This document shows, one piece after another, positions 1-11,704 of a stretch of DNA of 11,931 bases. The notes beneath the pieces were generated by a model. That model saw only the letters and a list, made by a program, of their open reading frames with translations. It had not been told where the DNA came from and searched no databases. The stretch's first letter is position 1, and every line of letters starts with the position of its first letter. Made by a program: the position numbers and the translations under genes. Source of the DNA: a virus (Duplodnaviria; Heunggongvirae; Uroviricota; Caudoviricetes); the IMG/VR virus record IMGVR_UViG_2529292834_000013. One strand, 5' to 3'.

Positions 1-892
<892 letters not shown>

Positions 893-906
893 CTTATTGA
901 TTTAAA

Positions 907-952
907 TGGTGCCGATAATAGGAGTCGAACCTACGACCTTCGCATTACGAAT
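907..952 (-). other. 3' 46 nt of a tRNA-Thr(CGU) gene (thrW-like), including anticodon loop, T-arm and CCA end; att-site remnant, not a functional tRNA
   Basis: Reverse complement of 907-952 reads TTCGTAATGCGAAGGTCGTAGGTTCGACTCCTATTATCGGCACCA: anticodon CGT in a loop, T-stem GTAGG/CCTAT around TTCGACT, acceptor 3' strand and CCA. Sequence beyond nt 952 does not continue as D-arm or acceptor 5' strand. Confidence 0.65.
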
Positions 953-1031
953 TATAAGAATCCGCTTCTAATTCAAAGCATTACCCCATCAACACTGCGC
1001 TCACACGTCCCACCACATCAAAACATGTAAA

Positions 1032-1071
1032 GCCTTGCAAGCCATTGCGAGGCTTTATGTGTCTCAGTTTT
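1032..1071. terminator. Candidate hairpin with T-rich flanks on both strands (possible bidirectional terminator)
   Basis: GCCTTGCAA (1032-1040), loop GCCA, TTGCGAGGC (1045-1053): 9-bp stem with one G-U pair, followed by TTTATGTGTCTCAGTTTTGT; on the other strand the stem is followed by TTTACATGTTTT. Weak. Confidence 0.25.
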
Positions 1072-1335
1072 GTCCCACCTTTTATTACGACTTGCATAGC
1101 CAATGAAGATAAACGTGACGACAAACGGCGCAGCAATCTTCCTTTCTTTCACACTTTCCCAACCCAGCATGTATACTTTTCTGCCATAACTAAAGTGAAT
1201 GCCTGTTATGAGCAACAAACAGGCATTAGCGCCGCTAGCATATTAGCTACCATTCGACTGCCACACTTAAGATTGATTTCTTAAGTATAACCCGGTTTCT
1301 AATACTACTTATATATTCAGCTCTGAGATTCATTT

Positions 1336-4300
1336 TTATCTCGTAAAGCTAGTTTTATGACTTCCTGTTAGCTGACTGTCTTCATAATAAAATGCTCCAC
1401 TAAACTCCTGTCGACCATAATGATGACTTGATATGAGTGAGCCCCCTATAACGCCCTTTTCACCTAATAATGTCCAAACGATTTCAAAACCATTGTCCCT
1501 TAACATTGTTAAAAATGGTTCTTTTTTAACAAGTAGATGCGGCTTTGAAGCATATACAGCTTCAGCTGCAAAGCAAACCATAGTTCCATTTTCATCATTG
1601 AAGCTACCCTCTACTTCCCCACTTTTTAATCCCATCTTTTCAAAGATTAAGTTACTAGGCTTCAAAAAATTCAAAGTTTCTATTTTTGATTTGTCGAACT
1701 CCTCTTCCCACAAATAATTAATCGAAGTGACACTAACATCAGCTATCTTAGCTCCAGACTCCCGGTCTGTTACCGAAGTCCAGTCAGATCCACCATAATA
1801 ATCTGATTTAAAAGACTTAAATGCTTCGGACCAATAGTACTCCCTATTAAATAATTGGTATCTATCAGTACATTCCGGCATCCACCTGCCCATAAAGTCT
1901 TGAGCTATTGCCCAACATCTAAAATTTTCAAATTCTTCAACTTTAACGATATAACTTCTGATCTGATACCAAACCTCTTTTCGTGGGTGCCCCCAATCAT
2001 CGTTTCCAATAATTTTTGGTTCTTTCCATGATGGATGACTTTCTAATACTATCCATTCATCACCATTATCATCTTTAACTTCAATAAAAGCATATGAATT
2101 AGTTATAGTAGTAGAACTTTTAACCCAGTCTTCATTAGAGCAAGTCCAATCAAACACTTCATCATTAAGCCACCACATTTCTTTATTGCTTATTTTTTTC
2201 GTTCCAGTTTCTTTAAGTAAGATAGTGGGATCTATATCTCTTACGTAAGGCTCCCATGGCCCTTGGTATGGATTTTCCTTTCGTTCGTCACCATAACCTT
2301 CAAAACGAGTAAAATTATCGGCTAGCCTTGCCATGTATTCATAATAAGCAATCCATTGGGATTTTTTACCAATCCGTTCTTGGAATGCCTCTCTACGTCC
2401 ACGTCCAGTTCCTATTTGTTGGTCAAAATTACCATGCTTCTCCGGATCCCAACCAAGCTCTATAACACGATTGAATATAAATTGTTGAGCTAGTCGAAGA
2501 TCAAAGTGTTTATCAGTTTCCAGCAGATTATTATTATGATCCAGGTATGGCTCTATTTCATTTTCAAACTCACTTAACAGATCGTATGACAATGAATTCT
2601 TAAATAATTTCTTGCTCGCCTTTATTTCTTCCTGTGCTTTTCTACCGACCACACGACCAAATTTAATTCCTTCGCATTTATCATCATAAATGAAAGGATC
2701 TGTGGCATCATACAAGTCTTTTTGTTGATCAGTTAGTTTACATTTGAAAGTTTTAAAAACTTGCTTACGGTCAACAGGGGTTTCATTAAACTTGCAACCA
2801 GACCAATCAGAATGATTATAATTTGTTCCAATAGTATATCGTGAAAAGTCACCATCTTCCATAATAGAGCTCCAGAGTTCCCGATAAGGTTCTTTATCAT
2901 AAAGGGACTCTAGTTCCTCTTTTGAAGGAATCTTGTCAGGCCAAATGCTGTTGTAGGGTGGTCTAGTCTTGGATAATTCAATGCTTTCAAGTTCCAATCC
3001 AAGATGATTAGCAAATTCAATAATCTCTCTAGCATAATCTCTAAGTAATATATTTGGATACACATACTTAGAACAAAATACCTTTTGGTAAACAGTTTCG
3101 GCTAAATATTTTAGTTCTTTAATATTATCAGTTCGCAATGTACAGCCTAATGCAACTGCAAATATTCTTTCCCAAACGTAAGGATCATTTACACCATAAA
3201 ACTTATCAATTATTTTTCTCAATACAGGAATTCTTGGCTCGAGTAAACTCACTAAAGCCTTAGTTGAGCAATCTCGAAGTTCTCGGTTACTAGAAGTTAA
3301 AAACCAGCATAAACTAGTTGCAACTAGCTCGATTGACTCATCCGAAACAAAGCTTTTATCTGTTCTGGCCCATGCCCAATCGATTAGATGCCTAAATGCT
3401 GAGTCTTCACTATATTTATATTTAAGTTCTGTAGTCCAAAACGAATCTCGATTTGCCAAAGAATAATCTTTTAGCCAATCATGCAAGAAATTAGCATTAA
3501 AGGGATGGCCAACTAAACCTGAAATAGAGATCACTGCCTCGAGGAAATGATCAAAACTATCTTTAAATTTAAAAACATGTTCATTGATGAAAGGTCTAAT
3601 TTTTTCGAAATAAATAGCCTTAATATCGCGCCATATCAAGCTATCAATAAAGGCTTCTAGTAATTTAAGATTATTGCTGAACTCCGGCAGAAATTCATAA
3701 AGCTCTTTTTCATACCTTTCTGGCAATTGAATAGACAACGCCTCTACTATTCCCGATTTTATATAAAAATCACATTCATCATGAAAATATTTTTTCAGAC
3801 GACCATCAGGCTTAAATTCACTTTCGATATTTTCAACATCATTTAATAAAAAATTAACAGTTAAATGATCATCAAACCTTTCAAAAGCCACATAAACTAC
3901 TTCCTCAGTAGAATTATCATCATTTCTCACTATGCCTTTAGTCAATAATCCTTCGTCAATCAAGGCGCTGAGGAAGGTTTTATCAGCAACATAATCATTA
4001 ACTACAGATTGAACCACTGAGTGAGCATCTTTAAGTGAAATACTATTACGACCAATCTCTAATTTGAATTTTATGATTTCATTGAGAGCATCTTTAACAA
4101 GAGGAAAACTGGGATCGAATGCATATTTTTTTGGCGATGCTAATGATTTATTTACCCCTTCAACTAAAAAGTTAAAAATATTTGAAATCCCATTAAATCC
4201 AACAGGCACTTTGGTTAAACCATTTTTCTTAATGCCTTCACACAATAACTTAAGAAATAGAGGATTTTTAAACTCTGGATTAAGGTTAGGAGATGAAGGC

Positions 4301-5790
4301 CTCTCAATATTGTAATAATCATAAAATAGACTAACCGCTTCCAACTCAACGTTCTGGAATCCAATATGTTCATGAATTTCAAAATTATTTCGCACAACAT
4401 TCTCATGTGAAATTGTTACATTTCTATATGTTGTTCTGACTGACATTATCAGACCAAGCCATTCAAAGCATCTGATTTCATCGACAAAACTGTTAATATT
4501 GTCATTCCAGAATTTATTTCCATTACCTTCATTAATAGCATCAATAAAAACTAAGACTCTTTTTCCTGTTTTTTTGCCATATAAATTCAGTTTTTCTAGG
4601 AATTCACGAGAAGTGATTTTAAGCTGTAATCTCTTGAAGATTTGTGACCATGGAGATTCATCTGAAGTAAGTTGTTGCCCTAGTATGAGTAGTGAAGGAT
4701 ACCCAGAAGCAATTCGATTTTTAATCACATCAGCCAGTAAATGAGACTTACCAATTCCTGCTTTTCCTTCGAGAAGTAAGAATGGGTTGTTAGCCAACTT
4801 CACTGTTGTTGAATTAATGAATATACGTAATTCATTGCACGCATAGTCAAATTCCCGAAGCATTCGCAGAGTAGATGAATACTTATCACTGTAATGCTTG
4901 GTTTCACCTACTTGCTCTGACTTTTCTCGGAGTTCCCACAATATTGATACCGCTCCGCCAATAGCTGTCTGGCAGCTAGAAACATAGTTATTAAATTTAT
5001 TTATAGGGATTTCATCTAATTTAGAAAAATTAATCTCCTGATATATATCAGAAATTTCTTTTAAGGACTGGTTTATTTCAAATAATTCTGAGGAAATTAC
5101 ATCGCAACTATGTAATTTCTTTCCAGCGACCAGAAAGCTATCTATATGCGAATAAAATATTTTAGAAAAATCATTAGTTCTACCGAGGCCATCAAATATC
5201 TCTGCTATTTCTAGCTTTACGTTGAGTTCGGGTGTGTATCGACCTCCCAAGTCAGCTATTGCTTGACTATTTTTTTCATTTAACCAATCATCACTTAAGT
5301 GAAAAGTTAGTTTCTCATCTATAGACCGTAAAATAAGTTTGACTTGAATGAGCTCTTCATTAATATCGAATATTTTTTCTTTATACGTTTCTTCGATATG
5401 TAGCTTTTTTAACTTCGAACAATTATTGATTTTTAATGATAACATCCCATAAAAAAGGCTGAGTTGTTGTTGAGTTGGGGGAGTGACGCTTGGATATTCT
5501 TTGAACTTGTCTAATAACATCTCTTTGTCAGGGAACTCTTTAAAAAGGATGTACTCATTCAACATCTCAAACAATGGTTTAGAATGATAAAATGGAATTG
5601 CTCCACTTTCTACTGGATATGTTTCTTCAAACTCAATTGCCGTCTCTTCAATTAGTTGATATAATCTATCCACATATTTTTCTGTGGGGAATAATGCTTT
5701 CTTAATCCAACTATATCCTTCTTGAGAAATGAATTGATCAATAAGTTTAGTTGCTACATAAGTTGCCACTGTAATTGATATGGGTTCCAT
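1336..5790 (-). CDS. Large (1484 aa) STAND-class P-loop NTPase with unassigned ~330-aa N-terminal domain and ~1000-aa C-terminal region; candidate Avs/bNACHT-like antiviral sensor
   Basis: Single uninterrupted 4455-nt ORF. Walker A LLLEGKAGIGKSHLL (about aa 340-355), Walker B KRVLVFIDAINEG (about aa 410-422, D-[GA]-x-[DN]-E form), and a downstream hhhTxR-like LIMSVRTT (about aa 447-454). Shine-Dalgarno GGGAGAAG sits 6 nt upstream of the ATG. Visibly more AT-rich than flanking prophage DNA (not computed). Confidence 0.85.
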   Translation of the reverse strand: MEPISITVATYVATKLIDQFISQEGYSWIKKALFPTEKYVDRLYQLIEETAIEFEETYPVESGAIPFYHSKPLFEMLNEYILFKEFPDKEMLLDKFKEYPSVTPPTQQQLSLFYGMLSLKINNCSKLKKLHIEETYKEKIFDINEELIQVKLILRSIDEKLTFHLSDDWLNEKNSQAIADLGGRYTPELNVKLEIAEIFDGLGRTNDFSKIFYSHIDSFLVAGKKLHSCDVISSELFEINQSLKEISDIYQEINFSKLDEIPINKFNNYVSSCQTAIGGAVSILWELREKSEQVGETKHYSDKYSSTLRMLREFDYACNELRIFINSTTVKLANNPFLLLEGKAGIGKSHLLADVIKNRIASGYPSLLILGQQLTSDESPWSQIFKRLQLKITSREFLEKLNLYGKKTGKRVLVFIDAINEGNGNKFWNDNINSFVDEIRCFEWLGLIMSVRTTYRNVTISHENVVRNNFEIHEHIGFQNVELEAVSLFYDYYNIERPSSPNLNPEFKNPLFLKLLCEGIKKNGLTKVPVGFNGISNIFNFLVEGVNKSLASPKKYAFDPSFPLVKDALNEIIKFKLEIGRNSISLKDAHSVVQSVVNDYVADKTFLSALIDEGLLTKGIVRNDDNSTEEVVYVAFERFDDHLTVNFLLNDVENIESEFKPDGRLKKYFHDECDFYIKSGIVEALSIQLPERYEKELYEFLPEFSNNLKLLEAFIDSLIWRDIKAIYFEKIRPFINEHVFKFKDSFDHFLEAVISISGLVGHPFNANFLHDWLKDYSLANRDSFWTTELKYKYSEDSAFRHLIDWAWARTDKSFVSDESIELVATSLCWFLTSSNRELRDCSTKALVSLLEPRIPVLRKIIDKFYGVNDPYVWERIFAVALGCTLRTDNIKELKYLAETVYQKVFCSKYVYPNILLRDYAREIIEFANHLGLELESIELSKTRPPYNSIWPDKIPSKEELESLYDKEPYRELWSSIMEDGDFSRYTIGTNYNHSDWSGCKFNETPVDRKQVFKTFKCKLTDQQKDLYDATDPFIYDDKCEGIKFGRVVGRKAQEEIKASKKLFKNSLSYDLLSEFENEIEPYLDHNNNLLETDKHFDLRLAQQFIFNRVIELGWDPEKHGNFDQQIGTGRGRREAFQERIGKKSQWIAYYEYMARLADNFTRFEGYGDERKENPYQGPWEPYVRDIDPTILLKETGTKKISNKEMWWLNDEVFDWTCSNEDWVKSSTTITNSYAFIEVKDDNGDEWIVLESHPSWKEPKIIGNDDWGHPRKEVWYQIRSYIVKVEEFENFRCWAIAQDFMGRWMPECTDRYQLFNREYYWSEAFKSFKSDYYGGSDWTSVTDRESGAKIADVSVTSINYLWEEEFDKSKIETLNFLKPSNLIFEKMGLKSGEVEGSFNDENGTMVCFAAEAVYASKPHLLVKKEPFLTMLRDNGFEIVWTLLGEKGVIGGSLISSHHYGRQEFSGAFYYEDSQLTGSHKTSFTR

Positions 5791-5796
5791 GATTAG

Positions 5797-5804
5797 CTTC
5801 TCCC
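5797..5804 (-). promoter_or_regulatory. Ribosome-binding site of the large NTPase gene
   Basis: Minus-strand GGGAGAAG with a 6-nt spacer before the ATG at 5790-5788. Confidence 0.5.
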
Positions 5805-6312
5805 AACAATTAAATTTTTACCAAGCGTTTATGCTTTCCAATAATTATTACATCTCACCGTAAAACATATTTATATGGTTTTAAACCTATCTGTAAATCT
5901 TGACACCTTGGCAAGAACCTAATCCTACATTTTAATATCAATCTATATAATATCGCCAGCGTCATAATAATCGGGCTTGTCATAGTTAAGTATTCGCCTC
6001 CGATATCCCAATGAGATAAGTAAGTCATAAGTGTTATAAATGAAAAGGTTACATTTTTCAAAGAGTTATTATGATGGAATATTATTCAAAACGCAATGTA
6101 GCTGAAACGAGTCTGAGTTTAACATCCGCTCCTAGTACATAGTAGTCCTAGGGACAGTGGCGTAAAGTCATAGATGGCCGGTGGGAGGTGATGGAAATCC
6201 TCTCATGCAAAAAATACATAAAATCGATAACGGCTGGAAATCATTCAATACTCGCACTATCGAAAGTTCACCAGCCAACCGCGCACAATCTTGCATACGA
6301 CATGCTACGGTT

Positions 6313-6867
6313 TCATTTATCTCCGACCGGAAACTTCTTATACAGTGTCGATATACCAACATCATAGATGATCGCCACCTTCTGGCGAGGAACGCCTGAT
6401 GCAATTAATCGCCCGGCCTGCGCCCATTGTTCTGGTGTAAGTTTGGGACGACGTCCCCCAATTCGTCCCTGTGCGCGAGCAGCTTCCAGTCCAGCTTTTG
6501 TTCGTTCAACAATCAGTTCTCGTTCCATTTCAGCCAGGGCACCCATCACATGAAAGAAAAAACGCCCCATCGGTGTGCTGGTATCAATAGCATCCGTCAG
6601 GCTGCGAAAATTAACGCCACGTTCGCGCAACTCCTCAACCAGAATGACCAGATGCCGCATACTACGCCCCAGCCGATCCAGTTTCCAGACCACCAGAGTG
6701 TCACCTGCCGATAATGTCCTGAGCAGTTTTTTCAGTCCCGGTCTTTCGGACTTCGTACCGCTTATCTTGTCTTCAAAAATCAGTTCACATCCTACACAGT
6801 TCAACGCATTACGTTGTAGATCGGTGTTCTGGTCATTTGTTGATACGCGAACATAGCCAATAAGCAT
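6313..6867 (-). CDS. pin: Serine recombinase, DNA invertase of the Pin/Gin/Hin/Cin family (184 aa, apparently intact)
   Basis: Starts MLIGYVRVSTNDQNTDLQRNAL (catalytic Ser in VRVSTNDQ), has DTLVVWKLDRLGRSM and MGRFFFHVMGALAEMERELI, and ends with the HTH ...VAIIYDVGISTLYKKFPVGDK. Very close to e14 Pin / Mu Gin as I recall them. The ORF-track N-terminal extension (MASFLLLPGGST) is rejected in favour of the canonical MLIGY start at 6867. Confidence 0.9.
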   Translation of the reverse strand: MLIGYVRVSTNDQNTDLQRNALNCVGCELIFEDKISGTKSERPGLKKLLRTLSAGDTLVVWKLDRLGRSMRHLVILVEELRERGVNFRSLTDAIDTSTPMGRFFFHVMGALAEMERELIVERTKAGLEAARAQGRIGGRRPKLTPEQWAQAGRLIASGVPRQKVAIIYDVGISTLYKKFPVGDK

Positions 6868-6893
6868 GGTAGATCCCCCAGGTAAAAGCAGGA

Positions 6894-7391
6894 ATGATGC
6901 CATTTGCTCGTTATTTCTGCATTTTCATAAACCTTGGTTTGGGAGAAGGTGCTCCAGCTATTGGCGTTCCGTTCTTCTGGCCGTCCGCTGCAATGCCAAA
7001 TACTGTAATCGACAGCTGGTCCAGTATGGTGTTTTTGAAGTTCAACGGCGCGAAATTCTCTGCCACTGATTATCCTGTGCTGGCGAAAGTGTTTCCTTCG
7101 CTGGTATTACCTGAAGCCCGCGGTGATTTCATTCGTATCTGGGATGACGGGCGAGGTGCAGACGGTGGTCGCGAATTATTAAGCTGGCAGGCAGCTACAA
7201 ACTTTTCTCAGTTTGCCGGGAATATAGGCGAAGGGGCGGGACACGCAATTAACTTTCATGATGGCATCGCCGGAAATCAGCCAGGATTTTCACGATTTAA
7301 TTTCACCAGTAACTCTGTGGGTGATGGTGTGAATTTTGTTGCTGTCAGACCGCGAAATATTGCATTTAACTTTCTGGTGAGGGCTAAATAA
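6894..7391 (+). CDS. Phage tail-fibre protein, C-terminal variable (receptor-binding) domain, variant A; lacks a constant N-terminal shaft
   Basis: ORF contains GVPFFWPS...YPVLAKVFPSLVLPEARGDFIRIWDDGRGADGGR, the motif set of Mu S / e14 Stf-type fibre C-termini. Its stop overlaps the downstream tfa start (TAATG at 7389-7393). The first ~19 codons (MMPFARYFCIFIN...) lie inside the inverted repeat; the true translational start is uncertain. Confidence 0.65.
   Translation: MMPFARYFCIFINLGLGEGAPAIGVPFFWPSAAMPNTVIDSWSSMVFLKFNGAKFSATDYPVLAKVFPSLVLPEARGDFIRIWDDGRGADGGRELLSWQAATNFSQFAGNIGEGAGHAINFHDGIAGNQPGFSRFNFTSNSVGDGVNFVAVRPRNIAFNFLVRAK
6922..6947. other. gix/hix/pix-like 26-bp invertase crossover site (left)
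   Basis: TTTTCATAAACC-TT-GGTTTGGGAGAA: two 12-bp inverted half-sites around a 2-bp core, matching the TTnnnnnAAACC-NN-GGTTTnnnnnAA pattern of Gin/Hin/Pin sites. Confidence 0.6.
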
Positions 7392-7984
7392 TGAAACCTG
7401 TTTTTGATGAAAATGGGCTGGCTACAGTGCCGGGCGATATGCGTTGTTTTTATTATGATGCTGAAACATCTGAGTATACGGGCTGGTCTGATGAATATAT
7501 TAATACTGGCGTAAGTATGCCCGCCTGTTCCACTGGTATTGACCCTGGCGAAAACATTCCGGGAAGAGTGGCAGTATTTACAGGTAAGGGATGGCGCCAT
7601 GAAGAAGACCATCGCAATGAGACTGTTTACTTAATCGAAAATGGCGCAGCTGTTACAGTGGATTATATCGGTGCCATCAAAGACGGTTATGTCACGATTT
7701 CACCGTTAACGCCATACGATAAATGGGATGGTGAGAAATGGGTGACAGACACTGAGGCACAACACAGTGCCGCAGTAGACGCGGCAGAAGCACAGCGCCA
7801 GTCACTGATTGATGCAGCAATGGCTTCCATTAGTCTGATTCAGCTGAAATTACAGGCCGGACGGAAACTGACTCAGGCAGAAACAACCCGACTTAACGCC
7901 GTGCTGGATTACATTGACGCGGTGACGGCAACAGATACCAGCACCGCGCCGGATATCATCTGGCCTGAACTGCCGGAGGCGTAG
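7391..7984 (+). CDS. Tail-fibre assembly protein (Tfa/U-like), variant A
   Basis: 197 aa, translationally coupled to the fibre domain upstream; C-terminal DTSTAPDIIWPELP motif shared with Tfa chaperones. Confidence 0.8.
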   Translation: MKPVFDENGLATVPGDMRCFYYDAETSEYTGWSDEYINTGVSMPACSTGIDPGENIPGRVAVFTGKGWRHEEDHRNETVYLIENGAAVTVDYIGAIKDGYVTISPLTPYDKWDGEKWVTDTEAQHSAAVDAAEAQRQSLIDAAMASISLIQLKLQAGRKLTQAETTRLNAVLDYIDAVTATDTSTAPDIIWPELPEA

Positions 7985-8384
7985 GCCATTCAATATCGGG
8001 TGCTGTTGACGTATCAACACGCATCAGCAGCACACGGTATTTCTTCCATTGGGTGAGAGTTGTAGCTTCTTCATCAGTTGCGATATCAGCATCAACAGCA
8101 TCCTGACGCCAGGATATTTCACTGTCAGCTTTTTCCCGTAATTGGGATTTTTTAACTTCAGCAATAGCTATTAATTCCTTTTTGGTCGGCTGAGGAATAT
8201 CTATCAGTGCTGGTTTTCCATTCAGTGTTCCAATCTGTTTTCCTGGTGGAATATCCATAAATAACTTCTTATGTTCTTCCTCACTGACTATTACACCATC
8301 ATCAGGCCACAGACCTGATGCCTCAAATTTTTCTTTCTCCGATATGGGGAAAAAGCCATTTGCTTTAGCGCTCCATACGTACAT
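7956..8384 (-). CDS. Tail-fibre assembly protein (Tfa-like), variant B
   Basis: 142 aa; N-terminus MYVWSAKANGFFP and C-terminus WKKYRVLLMRVDTSTAPDIEWP are typical of e14/lambdoid Tfa proteins. Convergent with variant A, with 29-bp 3' overlap. Confidence 0.8.
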   Translation of the reverse strand: MYVWSAKANGFFPISEKEKFEASGLWPDDGVIVSEEEHKKLFMDIPPGKQIGTLNGKPALIDIPQPTKKELIAIAEVKKSQLREKADSEISWRQDAVDADIATDEEATTLTQWKKYRVLLMRVDTSTAPDIEWPTPPAVQAR

Positions 8385-8385
8385 A

Positions 8386-8721
8386 TCAATACCCCACCGC
8401 TATAATGTCCACATTAAATCCCCCGGGACCTGCCTGCCAGATGCTGGCCCCTGTTAATGATTTTGTTTGATGAACAACCGCCACATTTGCTGGCGATTGT
8501 GTTTCAGTTGTTACAGTACCGATATCATTCCAGTTAATTGAGATGGAATAGTTCGTTGTTGTAAACGACCGGGGGAAAGTTATGTGTCTTACATTGGTGC
8601 CGACAGGAAATCCAAGATAAACACGCTGAATTATCATTCCTCCAGGTAACATAACCCAGTTAGCACCTTCTCCAAAACCAACATTTATGAAAATGCAGAA
8701 ATAACGAGCAAATGGCATCAT
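8386..8721 (-). CDS. Phage tail-fibre protein, alternative C-terminal variable domain, variant B; lacks a constant N-terminal shaft
   Basis: Begins with the same repeat-encoded peptide MMPFARYFCIFINVGFGEGA as variant A, then diverges completely; sits directly upstream of and coupled to tfa variant B. Identity rests on position and architecture, not a recognised motif. Confidence 0.55.
   Translation of the reverse strand: MMPFARYFCIFINVGFGEGANWVMLPGGMIIQRVYLGFPVGTNVRHITFPRSFTTTNYSISINWNDIGTVTTETQSPANVAVVHQTKSLTGASIWQAGPGGFNVDIIAVGY
8668..8693. other. gix/hix/pix-like invertase crossover site (right), one half-site degenerate
   Basis: TTCTCCAAAACC-AA-CATTTATGAAAA on the + strand: the left half fits the consensus; the other half reads AAATG where AAACC is expected. 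Confidence 0.5.
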
Positions 8722-8747
8722 TCCTGCTTTTACCTGGGGGATCTACC

Positions 8748-9266
8748 ATGCTTATTGGCTATGTTCGCGTATCAACAAATGACCAGAACACCGATCTACA
8801 ACGTAATGCGTTGAACTGTGCAGGATGCGAGCTGATTTTTGAAGACAAGATAAGCGGTACAAAGTCCGAAAGGCTGGGACTGAAAAAACTGCTCAGGACA
8901 TTATCGGCAGGTGACACTCTGGTTGTCTGGAAGCTGGATCGGCTGGGGCGTAGTATGCGGCATCTGGTCATTCTGGTTGAGGAGTTGCGCGAACGTGGCG
9001 TTAATTTTCGCAGCCTGACGGATGCTATTGATACCAGCACGCCGATGGGGCGTTTTTTCTTTCATGTGATGGGTGCCCTGGCTGAAATGGAACGAGAACT
9101 GATTGTTGAACGAACAAAAGCTGGACTGGAAGCTGCTCGCGCACAGGGACGAATTGGTGGACGTCGTCCCAAACTTACACCAGAACAATGGGCACAAGCC
9201 GGACGATTAATTGCATCAGGAGTTCCTCGCCAGAAGGTGGCGATCATTTATGATGTTGGCGTATAG
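8748..9266 (+). CDS. pin: Second copy of the Pin-type DNA invertase, inverted relative to the first; frameshifted near the 3' end so the HTH recognition helix is missing (172 aa; probably defective or a pseudogene)
   Basis: About 98% identical to the left copy through ...QKVAIIYDVG, then V-stop instead of ISTLYKKFPVGDK. Substitutions P->L (KSERLGLKK) and V->A (NCAGCE). SD-like GGGGGA about 8 nt upstream of ATG 8748. Confidence 0.8.
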   Translation: MLIGYVRVSTNDQNTDLQRNALNCAGCELIFEDKISGTKSERLGLKKLLRTLSAGDTLVVWKLDRLGRSMRHLVILVEELRERGVNFRSLTDAIDTSTPMGRFFFHVMGALAEMERELIVERTKAGLEAARAQGRIGGRRPKLTPEQWAQAGRLIASGVPRQKVAIIYDVGV

Positions 9267-9359
9267 TCTTTGTATAAGAAGTTTCCAGTCGGAGATAAAT
9301 GAAACCGTAGCACGTCGTATGCAAGATCGTGCTGCGGTTTATGCTTATCACTTAAAGAC

Positions 9360-10229
<870 letters not shown>

Positions 10230-10951: not shown

Positions 10952-11704
10952 GTGGATGATATGGCAACTACATGTTCAGTTATATTGATTTTGGAGTCCT
11001 TTGATGTTTATTTAGGAAAAGAGATTGTGTTTCTGGAGAGAGGTTCATCTGTACTTGTCGACTCTAGCTCTAGAGATTTTTTCCTGACATATCCTGAAAG
11101 AGTGATAGTGGCGGATTTTGGCGCTGAGTTTATTAGTCGCTATTTGAAAGCTAATAACTTAAGGGATATTTCTGATTGTAGGGAATATCCATCTTATTTA
11201 AAAATAAACTTTGCTGACTTCAGTTTAATTAAAGGATTAATTAGTTGGGCTAATCACTGTGCTGAATACATAGAAATTTTTGATGAGTCTATTGCTTTTA
11301 CATGTCTCTCTGCATTTTCTTCTGAAAAACAATTTGGAGTATTTCTGTTTGGATGTTTGAAAAGCACAGGGGCTAAAGTTAAAACGATTATTCATACGGA
11401 TTTATCTGCACCATGGCGTCTTAAGGATATATCATCAAGATTATATCTCAGCGAAAGTTTACTAAAGAGGAAATTGAAAGAAGAGGGGGTATCATTCAGT
11501 AAGATCATACTTGATGAGAGGATGCAAATGGCTGAATATTTACTCAGCACTCGTTGTTATCCTATTAGTAAAGTAGCTAAGGTCTGTGGTTATGCCAGTG
11601 TCTCATACTTTACTTATGTATTTAGACGTTATTTTGGTGTTTCTCCAAGTCAATACTCTCAGAGGAGTTCAGAAAGTAAAATTCTTACTCACCAGGGAAT
11701 CTGA
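10952..11704 (+). CDS. AraC/XylS-family transcriptional regulator (YdeO/AppY/EnvY-like)
   Basis: C-terminal double HTH: PWRLKDISSRLYLSESLLKRKLKEEGVSFSKIILDERMQMAEYLL...VAKVCGYASVSYFTYVFRRYFGVSPSQY. AT-rich. The true start may be the second ATG at 10961 (better spacing from GGTGG at 10946-10950). Confidence 0.8.
   Translation: MDDMATTCSVILILESFDVYLGKEIVFLERGSSVLVDSSSRDFFLTYPERVIVADFGAEFISRYLKANNLRDISDCREYPSYLKINFADFSLIKGLISWANHCAEYIEIFDESIAFTCLSAFSSEKQFGVFLFGCLKSTGAKVKTIIHTDLSAPWRLKDISSRLYLSESLLKRKLKEEGVSFSKIILDERMQMAEYLLSTRCYPISKVAKVCGYASVSYFTYVFRRYFGVSPSQYSQRSSESKILTHQGI

Follow-up and report, generated by a model that had tools for sequence, protein, structure and literature searches.

The 11,931-nucleotide stretch of DNA analyzed here (hereafter the window; IMG/VR virus record IMGVR_UViG_2529292834_000013, Caudoviricetes) carries on its minus strand a large open reading frame (ORF) that, by its sequence, is an allele of the E. 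coli anti-phage gene avs2 (EcAvs2), an already known gene and not a new one. The frame runs from an ATG to a stop codon over 1336-5790, encodes 1484 amino acids (aa) and contains no internal stops. The gene and the parts of its product are arranged as follows, where "about" marks approximate domain boundaries and HMM denotes a profile hidden Markov model.

1336-5790, minus strand: avs2 coding sequence (ORF; matched by NCBIfam NF041813, PADLOC PDLC02164 and RefSeq WP_001394806.1; 13 aa differences from PDB 9O4E)
5800-5804, minus strand: Shine-Dalgarno sequence GGGAG, 9 nucleotides (nt) 5' of the avs2 ATG, read from the sequence
5725-5790, minus strand: 'MEPIS' N-terminal hydrophobic helix, aa 1-22 (MEPISITVATYVATKLIDQFIS), conserved in 140 aligned sequences and predicted to be helical
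5302-5790, minus strand: N-terminal effector domain, aa 1 to about 163, predicted to be all-helical
4801-5301, minus strand: helical extension linking effector and NTPase, aa about 164-330 (Avs2 HMM coverage from aa 163-178; PMC13601566)
4744-4767, minus strand: Walker A motif (P-loop) GKAGIGKS, aa 342-349, including K348 (read from the sequence; weak Pfam STAND matches are centred here)
4528-4557, minus strand: Walker B motif VLVFIDAINE, aa 412-421 (read from the sequence)
4429-4452, minus strand: LIMSVRTT, aa 447-454 (position read from the sequence)
2851-4353, minus strand: rest of the STAND module and TPR-like helical sensor region, aa about 480-980 (Avs2 HMM coverage; PMC13601566)
1339-2850, minus strand: C-terminal sensor part, aa 981-1484, Trp-rich, with the contact residues for terminase and bridging ATP (eight interface residues present)

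An initial annotation of this DNA, made from the letters alone, had read most of this architecture correctly. Both Walker motifs (A and B) and LIMSVRTT, which it called hhhTxR-like, lie where it had placed them, and the flanks of the NTPase, which it put at about 330 and 1000 aa, come to about 340 aa ahead of the P-loop and about 1000 aa following the NTPase motifs. Its description of the last 450 or so residues as rich in W, D and E is borne out for Trp (3.8%, compared with 0.9% for aa 1-330 and 1.8% for aa 331-1034), while the excess of D and E is only slight (17.1%, compared with 15.8% and 14.6%, respectively). The gene has its own Shine-Dalgarno sequence, as that annotation had noted, and is AT-richer than its neighborhood, with a GC content of 0.343 versus about 0.46 in the DNA flanking it on both sides. 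The AT-rich leader, given as about 400 bp, corresponds to some 350-400 bp of a 522-bp non-coding gap 5' of the gene (5791-6312, GC 0.37). Since the other ORFs on the avs2 strand of the conserved cassette around the gene (838-6310, see below) have no family match and no copy of the N-terminal motif, avs2 fits a single-gene unit, in agreement with the earlier description of it as monocistronic. A scan for promoters and terminators of avs2 gave no signal above shuffled expectation; a candidate hairpin at about 1197-1226, some 110 nt past the stop codon, was rejected because its stability did not exceed that of shuffled sequences (z = -0.84).

Assignment to Avs2 follows from several resources. The NCBIfam Avs2 equivalog NF041813 scores 1680.8 bits against a cut-off of 1000, with the complete profile (1-1317 of 1317) aligned to aa 178-1476, and six PADLOC Avs2 models match the protein, the best being PDLC02164 (1747 bits, aa 22-1483). 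RefSeq names the identical gene "avs2, AVAST type 2 anti-phage system protein Avs2" (WP_001394806.1), and a PDB sequence search with the full protein returned a single entry, 9O4E (Avs2, 1484 aa), aligned end to end. The whole window is 99.9% identical to the E. coli chromosome NZ_LR883050 and to 17 other complete genomes, and avs2 occurs in 88 of 5426 complete E. coli genomes, once in each, with all copies listed annotated as avs2. Pfam, searched with the whole protein, yielded only P-loop matches below the gathering scores (nSTAND6, NACHT, NB-ARC), and searches with aa 1-180, 1-330 and 1035-1484 gave nothing for the N- or C-terminal regions apart from a chance match to Erf4, which is why no family assignment was apparent by eye. 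HMM coverage and motif positions place an effector, an NTPase and a repeat sensor in one polypeptide, with both the A and B Walker motifs intact in the central STAND NTPase and an Avs2-type TPR region and C-terminal sensor that retain the contact residues. We take the STAND class itself (NBD-HD1-WHD) from the structure paper (PMC13601566), our own Pfam STAND matches being weak. The proposal of a tripartite single-gene STAND anti-phage protein of the Avs kind is thus confirmed by the Avs2 HMMs and the identity to 9O4E.

A detailed account of EcAvs2 is already in the literature. The first report of EcAvs2, under the name AVAST type 2, is credited to Gao et al. (2020/2022) in the citations of PMC13601566, and entry 9O4E is a 2.3 Å cryo-electron microscopy structure of EcAvs2 with the large terminase of phage PhiV-1 (Evans et al., Nat Commun 2026, PMC13601566, from which the following statements on EcAvs2 are also taken). 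EcAvs2 protects against diverse tailed phages and is functional as a lone gene in heterologous E. coli, and co-expression screens of the whole proteomes of PhiV-1 and ZL19 identified the large terminase as its sole trigger; Ksap1 of Dhillonvirus and possibly vs.8 of T4 are further triggers. The part recognized is the terminase ATPase domain, which is held in a pocket formed by the helical extension, which adjoins the bound terminase, the TPR domain and a beta-rich "C-terminal sensor", and a bridging ATP is touched by R1132, D981 and E1364. Purified EcAvs2 oligomerizes solely when terminase is present, oligomerization with T4 terminase being seen by size-exclusion chromatography, and in the map EcAvs2 forms a flat C4 tetramer, each protomer of which binds one terminase, with ATP in the Avs2 ATPase. 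Replacement of the Walker A lysine (K348A) abolishes defense. The effector is described there as uncharacterized and non-enzymatic in appearance, and is not visible in the map. Of the two termini that the initial annotation had left unassigned, the C-terminal one is therefore accounted for as the TPR region and terminase sensor (PMC13601566), while for the N-terminal one a gap in function has previously been pointed out in published work.

The window protein differs from 9O4E at 13 of 1484 residues (99.1% identity), namely, with the window residue first, S27G, W28C, T36Q, E37K, K38R, K71E, Y80H, L82F, M91I, V102I, G115E, Y727D and S1144Y. Eleven of these lie in the effector between aa 27 and 115, leaving Y727D and S1144Y outside it, the latter being the single substitution within aa 950-1484. 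The NTPase region, including the Walker motifs, is identical to the ATP-bound NTPase of 9O4E. The same 13 differences separate the window protein from WP_063118745.1 of NZ_CP032426, indicating that the structure was solved on the WP_063118745.1 allele. Because all eight published interface residues (D981, R1130, R1132, W1266, E1362, E1364, E1444 and E1462) as well as K348 are kept, we have high confidence that the published mechanism of sensing and assembly would carry over to this allele.

The uneven distribution of the differences extends to the DNA. Compared with the avs2 cassette of NZ_CP032426, 50 of 59 differences fall within 5447-6310, a patch that covers the 5' 345 nt of avs2 (codons 21-115) and the entire upstream region and is about 5.8% divergent, whereas the remainder of avs2 has 2 differences in about 4100 nt. 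Judged from this alignment, the patch is the product of recombination in which both the promoter region and part of the avs2 effector were replaced, the breakpoint lying near codon 115, inside the effector domain.

Several lines of evidence delimit and describe this effector. Alignment with other Avs2 HMMs begins at aa 163-178, from which it follows that aa 1 to about 163 constitute an exchangeable effector; at this position most Avs2 proteins, such as KpAvs2, carry an Mrr nuclease (PMC11564622). Among 1.84 billion cluster representatives, searched exhaustively by phmmer with the effector domain, 217 proteins matched (E <= 0.001), and the domain is N-terminal in all matches listed. The remainders of 92 long matches sort into 12 unrelated partner groups, eight of which have more than one member. 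The largest (30 members) lacks Walker A and carries PIN-TPR-GreABC; other partners are Avs2-like, nSTAND3, NB-ARC-TPR and NACHT-like. The conserved positions of the domain are nearly all hydrophobic, with no catalytic-looking polar set, and an alignment of 140 sequences (the query and 139 homologues) has the N-terminal consensus M-[ED]-P-[IV]-[TS]-[IL]…YVAxK…DQFI…EGYG. The MEPIS motif stands at the extreme N-terminus across this alignment as part of a conserved hydrophobic helix, and the window protein begins with MEPISITVATYVATKLIDQFIS. AlphaFold2 models of the effector are all-helical; the better one has a mean predicted local distance difference test score (pLDDT) of 76.6, with values of about 90 for residues 40-130, and its least confident part is the predicted N-terminal helix (aa 6-22), which is poorly packed with a pLDDT of 45-58.

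The MEPIS motif links this effector to other systems. According to Ibarlosa et al. (bioRxiv 10.1101/2024.11.07.622273; published in Nat Microbiol in 2025 according to reference 23 of PMC13601566), the motif is common to the Bab, Bell and Hell membrane-targeting domains, "Avast2", bNACHT02, bNACHT11 and bNACHT23, its mutation lowers Avast2 defense against T4, and Bab leads to membrane alteration. The equivalence of the window motif to that of Bab and Bell is taken from that study and not from an alignment of our own. Searching PDB sequences with a profile made from the effector alignment returned only 9O4E and coiled-coil noise, whole-domain similarity in sequence or fold to solved or curated members of the Bell/Hell/HeLo-like group was not detected, and fold comparison gave no match to pore-forming helical domains.

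Taken together, the best joint explanation, to which we assign a probability of roughly 0.9, is that avs2 of the window is a one-protein pattern-recognition receptor carried as prophage cargo, which would act by the EcAvs2 mechanism through an effector that probably attacks membranes. By extension from experiments on the 99.1%-identical allele, its TPR region and beta-rich C-terminal sensor would bind the large-terminase ATPase domain of very diverse tailed phages, aided by a bridging ATP, upon which the ATP-loaded STAND NTPase would assemble into a flat C4 tetramer; defense would require the Walker A lysine K348, and some non-terminase proteins (Ksap1 and possibly T4 vs.8) would also act as triggers. 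Activation would be toxic to the cell and halt the spread of the phage by abortive infection. The tetramer would bring together four effectors (aa 1 to about 163), presumably non-enzymatic helical modules, and their exposed hydrophobic MEPIS helices may then be freed to attack the inner membrane, in a manner that would resemble the Bab/Bell, HeLo, MLKL and plant CC-NLR domains. Our best inference of helix release and membrane damage draws on the motif, the pattern of hydrophobic conservation and the published mutagenesis, not on a fold match, and is in keeping with the modular use of the domain, which caps the N-terminus of 12 unrelated families of partners, among them PIN-TPR-GreABC proteins that resemble Bab's partner Agp. 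As a tentative extension, which we hold to be somewhat less probable than its opposite, the approximately 160-aa effector may represent a distinct family of cell-death modules, non-enzymatic and structurally unclassified, that shares only the N-terminal helix with Bell/HeLo and inserts into membranes on NLR tetramerization, with the patch of 11 substitutions (aa 27-115) reflecting exchange or diversification of the module. The idea of a distinct cell-death module is already in the literature; what is added here is the allele-level observation and the negative fold search.

Other explanations differ mainly in what they make of the effector. In an otherwise genuine Avs2, the clustered domain could, rather than attack the membrane, serve as an adaptor without enzymatic activity: it might recruit or switch on a host factor, or nucleate a higher-order assembly, amyloid-like or other, that relies on a separate executioner protein. 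The failure of the effector to match pore-forming helical folds would fit such a role, as would the 'interacting partners' left possible in PMC13601566 and the fact that the MEPIS motif family was first described in amyloid-signalling systems. Nevertheless, tblastn searches with aa 1-30 and 1-60 against all six frames of the window recovered avs2 alone (next best E = 0.45), and the small ORFs flanking avs2 have no family matches; a two-gene amyloid (BASS) relay, considered as a candidate on the premise of a neighbor with the same motif, is thus unsupported. EcAvs2 also functions on its own, as one gene, in heterologous E. coli (PMC13601566), and a self-contained executioner fits a domain that caps many unrelated sensors better than a strain-specific partner would. 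We therefore regard the adaptor role as unlikely.

Still less probable is that the window allele is a decayed or functionally altered copy in which the recombinant patch disables expression or the effector. The packing of 50 of the 59 cassette differences into one segment of about 5.8% divergence, and of 11 of the 13 amino-acid changes into the effector, would be expected in that case, but the ORF is intact, its start codon and Shine-Dalgarno sequence are retained, and an identical or near-identical copy (8216-8222 bits, 100.0%) is present in at least seven of the complete genomes listed. Moreover, several of the substituted positions vary among natural homologues, in which W28, K71, Y80 and G115 recur, and the most conserved effector positions (L43, F67, Y68, L77, P105 and F113) are unaltered. 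There is next to no chance, finally, that the protein is an orphan, undescribed STAND defense protein with novel N- and C-terminal domains, as the initial annotation had proposed and as Pfam alone, with its sub-threshold P-loop matches and blank termini, might suggest. That reading is refuted by the curated NCBIfam and PADLOC models, which match along the full length, by the structure and published mechanism of a 99.1%-identical protein (9O4E; PMC13601566) and by the avs2 annotation in all listed genomes among the 88 carriers. Profile and PDB sequence searches did uncover full-length homology, but to the defense family Avs2 and not to a non-defense family, the case that the initial annotation had named as refuting; the claim of novelty nonetheless fails.

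Comparison with named systems places the window protein closest to EcAvs2 of 9O4E, with which it shares its length of 1484 aa, 99.1% identity and the same succession of effector, helical extension, STAND core, TPR region and C-terminal sensor, differing by the 13 substitutions, eleven of them in the effector as part of the patch that reaches into the upstream region. KpAvs2 of Klebsiella pneumoniae (Béchon et al., Nat Commun 2024, PMC11564622) has the same Avs2-family sensor and STAND core and, like EcAvs2, is triggered by terminase and Ksap1 (PMC13601566), but its effector is an Mrr-type nuclease, which degrades DNA, and its gene shares an operon with two accessory genes (PMC11564622), whereas the window protein has a non-nuclease helical MEPIS effector and no accessory genes. 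SeAvs3 and EcAvs4 (Gao et al. 2022, as cited in PMC13601566) are described as following the same Avs logic, in which a bound target brings about an ATP-bound tetramer with clustered N-terminal effectors, and Avs3 shares the C-terminal sensor with Avs2 and binds the same terminase surface (PMC13601566). As far as they are described in PMC13601566, these two differ in having nuclease effectors and in the TPR region, the SeAvs3 tetramer is elongated in contrast to the flat EcAvs2 tetramer, and Avs4 senses the portal protein, unlike Avs2. With Bab/Agp and the Bell/Hell/HeLo domains (Ibarlosa et al. 2025; bioRxiv 10.1101/2024.11.07.622273) the window protein has in common the N-terminal hydrophobic 'MEPIS' helix of about 15-22 aa, and the fusion of its effector domain to PIN-TPR-GreABC (Agp-like) proteins forms a link to Bab/Agp. 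The effector is, however, about 160 aa long compared with about 80-100 aa for Babybell and Bell, and it is fused directly to an NLR-like protein instead of signalling in trans, with no BASS partner motif at the locus.

Two further features describe the genomic setting of avs2.

907-952, minus strand: att remnant, the last 46 nt of tRNA-Thr(CGU) thrW (46/46 identity to K-12 thrW)
838-6310, strand not assigned: cassette common to other E. coli, comprising the thrW att repeat, a small unannotated spacer, avs2 and its upstream region (BLAST; NZ_CP032426, 98.9%; NZ_CP068591)

The att remnant, prophage remnant and defense-island context that the initial annotation had described around the gene are all present. 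The att site of CP4-6 is thrW. No complete tRNA was found, and since Rfam gave only a weak tmRNA-like T-arm match in the att region, which was discarded, the identity of thrW was set by direct alignment to K-12. In phages HK542, HK446 and mEpX2 the matching flank is annotated as attP, similar to thrW, and in the window a truncated integrase (107-892) abuts the att remnant. The cassette forms the last cargo of a lambdoid prophage in NZ_CP032426 and NZ_CP068591, where it lies between tail-fibre genes and attR-yagP'-paoD; avs2 is thus carried as cargo near att, at that end of a prophage integrated in thrW. Carriage on a sequenced phage was also considered and rejected, the gene being absent from the phage records of the collection searched. 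The placement of avs2 in the window is rearranged relative to the common arrangement: avs2 and the att repeat are inverted with respect to paoABCD compared with other E. coli, and their neighbors are the truncated integrase and IS66 in place of yagP', which suggests a large inversion or a tandem-prophage rearrangement, possibly via duplicated pin repeats. Between the att repeat and avs2 lies a hairpin (1023-1062) with a perfect-looking 18-bp stem (ACATGTAAAGCCTTGCAAG…), which is conserved within the cassette and falls in a 50-aa ORF annotated as hypothetical in RefSeq.

The prophage remnant upstream of avs2 (6283-9332) comprises Pin invertases, tail-fibre assembly genes and a gp53-like tail-fibre end. 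It is bounded by a 671-nt inverted repeat (arms 6283-6953 and 8662-9332, 96% complementary), each arm of which carries a Pin/Gin-type serine invertase gene (6313-6903, minus strand, and 8712-9266, plus strand), and the arms enclose 1708 nt with two convergent tail-fibre assembly genes and the gp53-like end. This arrangement resembles a host-range segment able to invert, with a copy of the duplicated invertase on either side, and may have been left behind when two tandem prophages recombined. An ORF at 6894-7391 (plus strand), called 'integrase, partial' in RefSeq, has no Pfam integrase match and lies directly 5' of a tail-fibre assembly gene in the invertible segment; it is more likely a tail-fibre C-terminal cassette, and the RefSeq label may be wrong. 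Beyond the repeat, a 274-aa LEM-3-like GIY-YIG protein (9360-10184, minus strand) matches the anti-phage gene PD-T4-3 over its full length (PADLOC PDLC04031, E = 2.7e-140), so that the window holds two defense genes, one on either side of the prophage tail-fibre segment. An AraC-family regulator (10952-11704, plus strand) lies in AT-rich DNA (GC of about 0.37).

The gene, its family, trigger, structure and defense phenotype are all published, and annotation pipelines already name avs2. The value of the locus is as a calibration case, in which a reading of the letters recognized an Avs-type STAND sensor and its prophage-edge context, while generic domain knowledge, like Pfam, does not reveal the Avs2 identity. 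How the MEPIS effector kills is a question already flagged by the field, and the window adds to it a natural variant of the effector domain. Should this effector be a distinct membrane-inserting cell-death family, it would correspond, in bacteria, to the resistosome funnel of plant CC-NLRs, here joined directly to a sensor of phage proteins.

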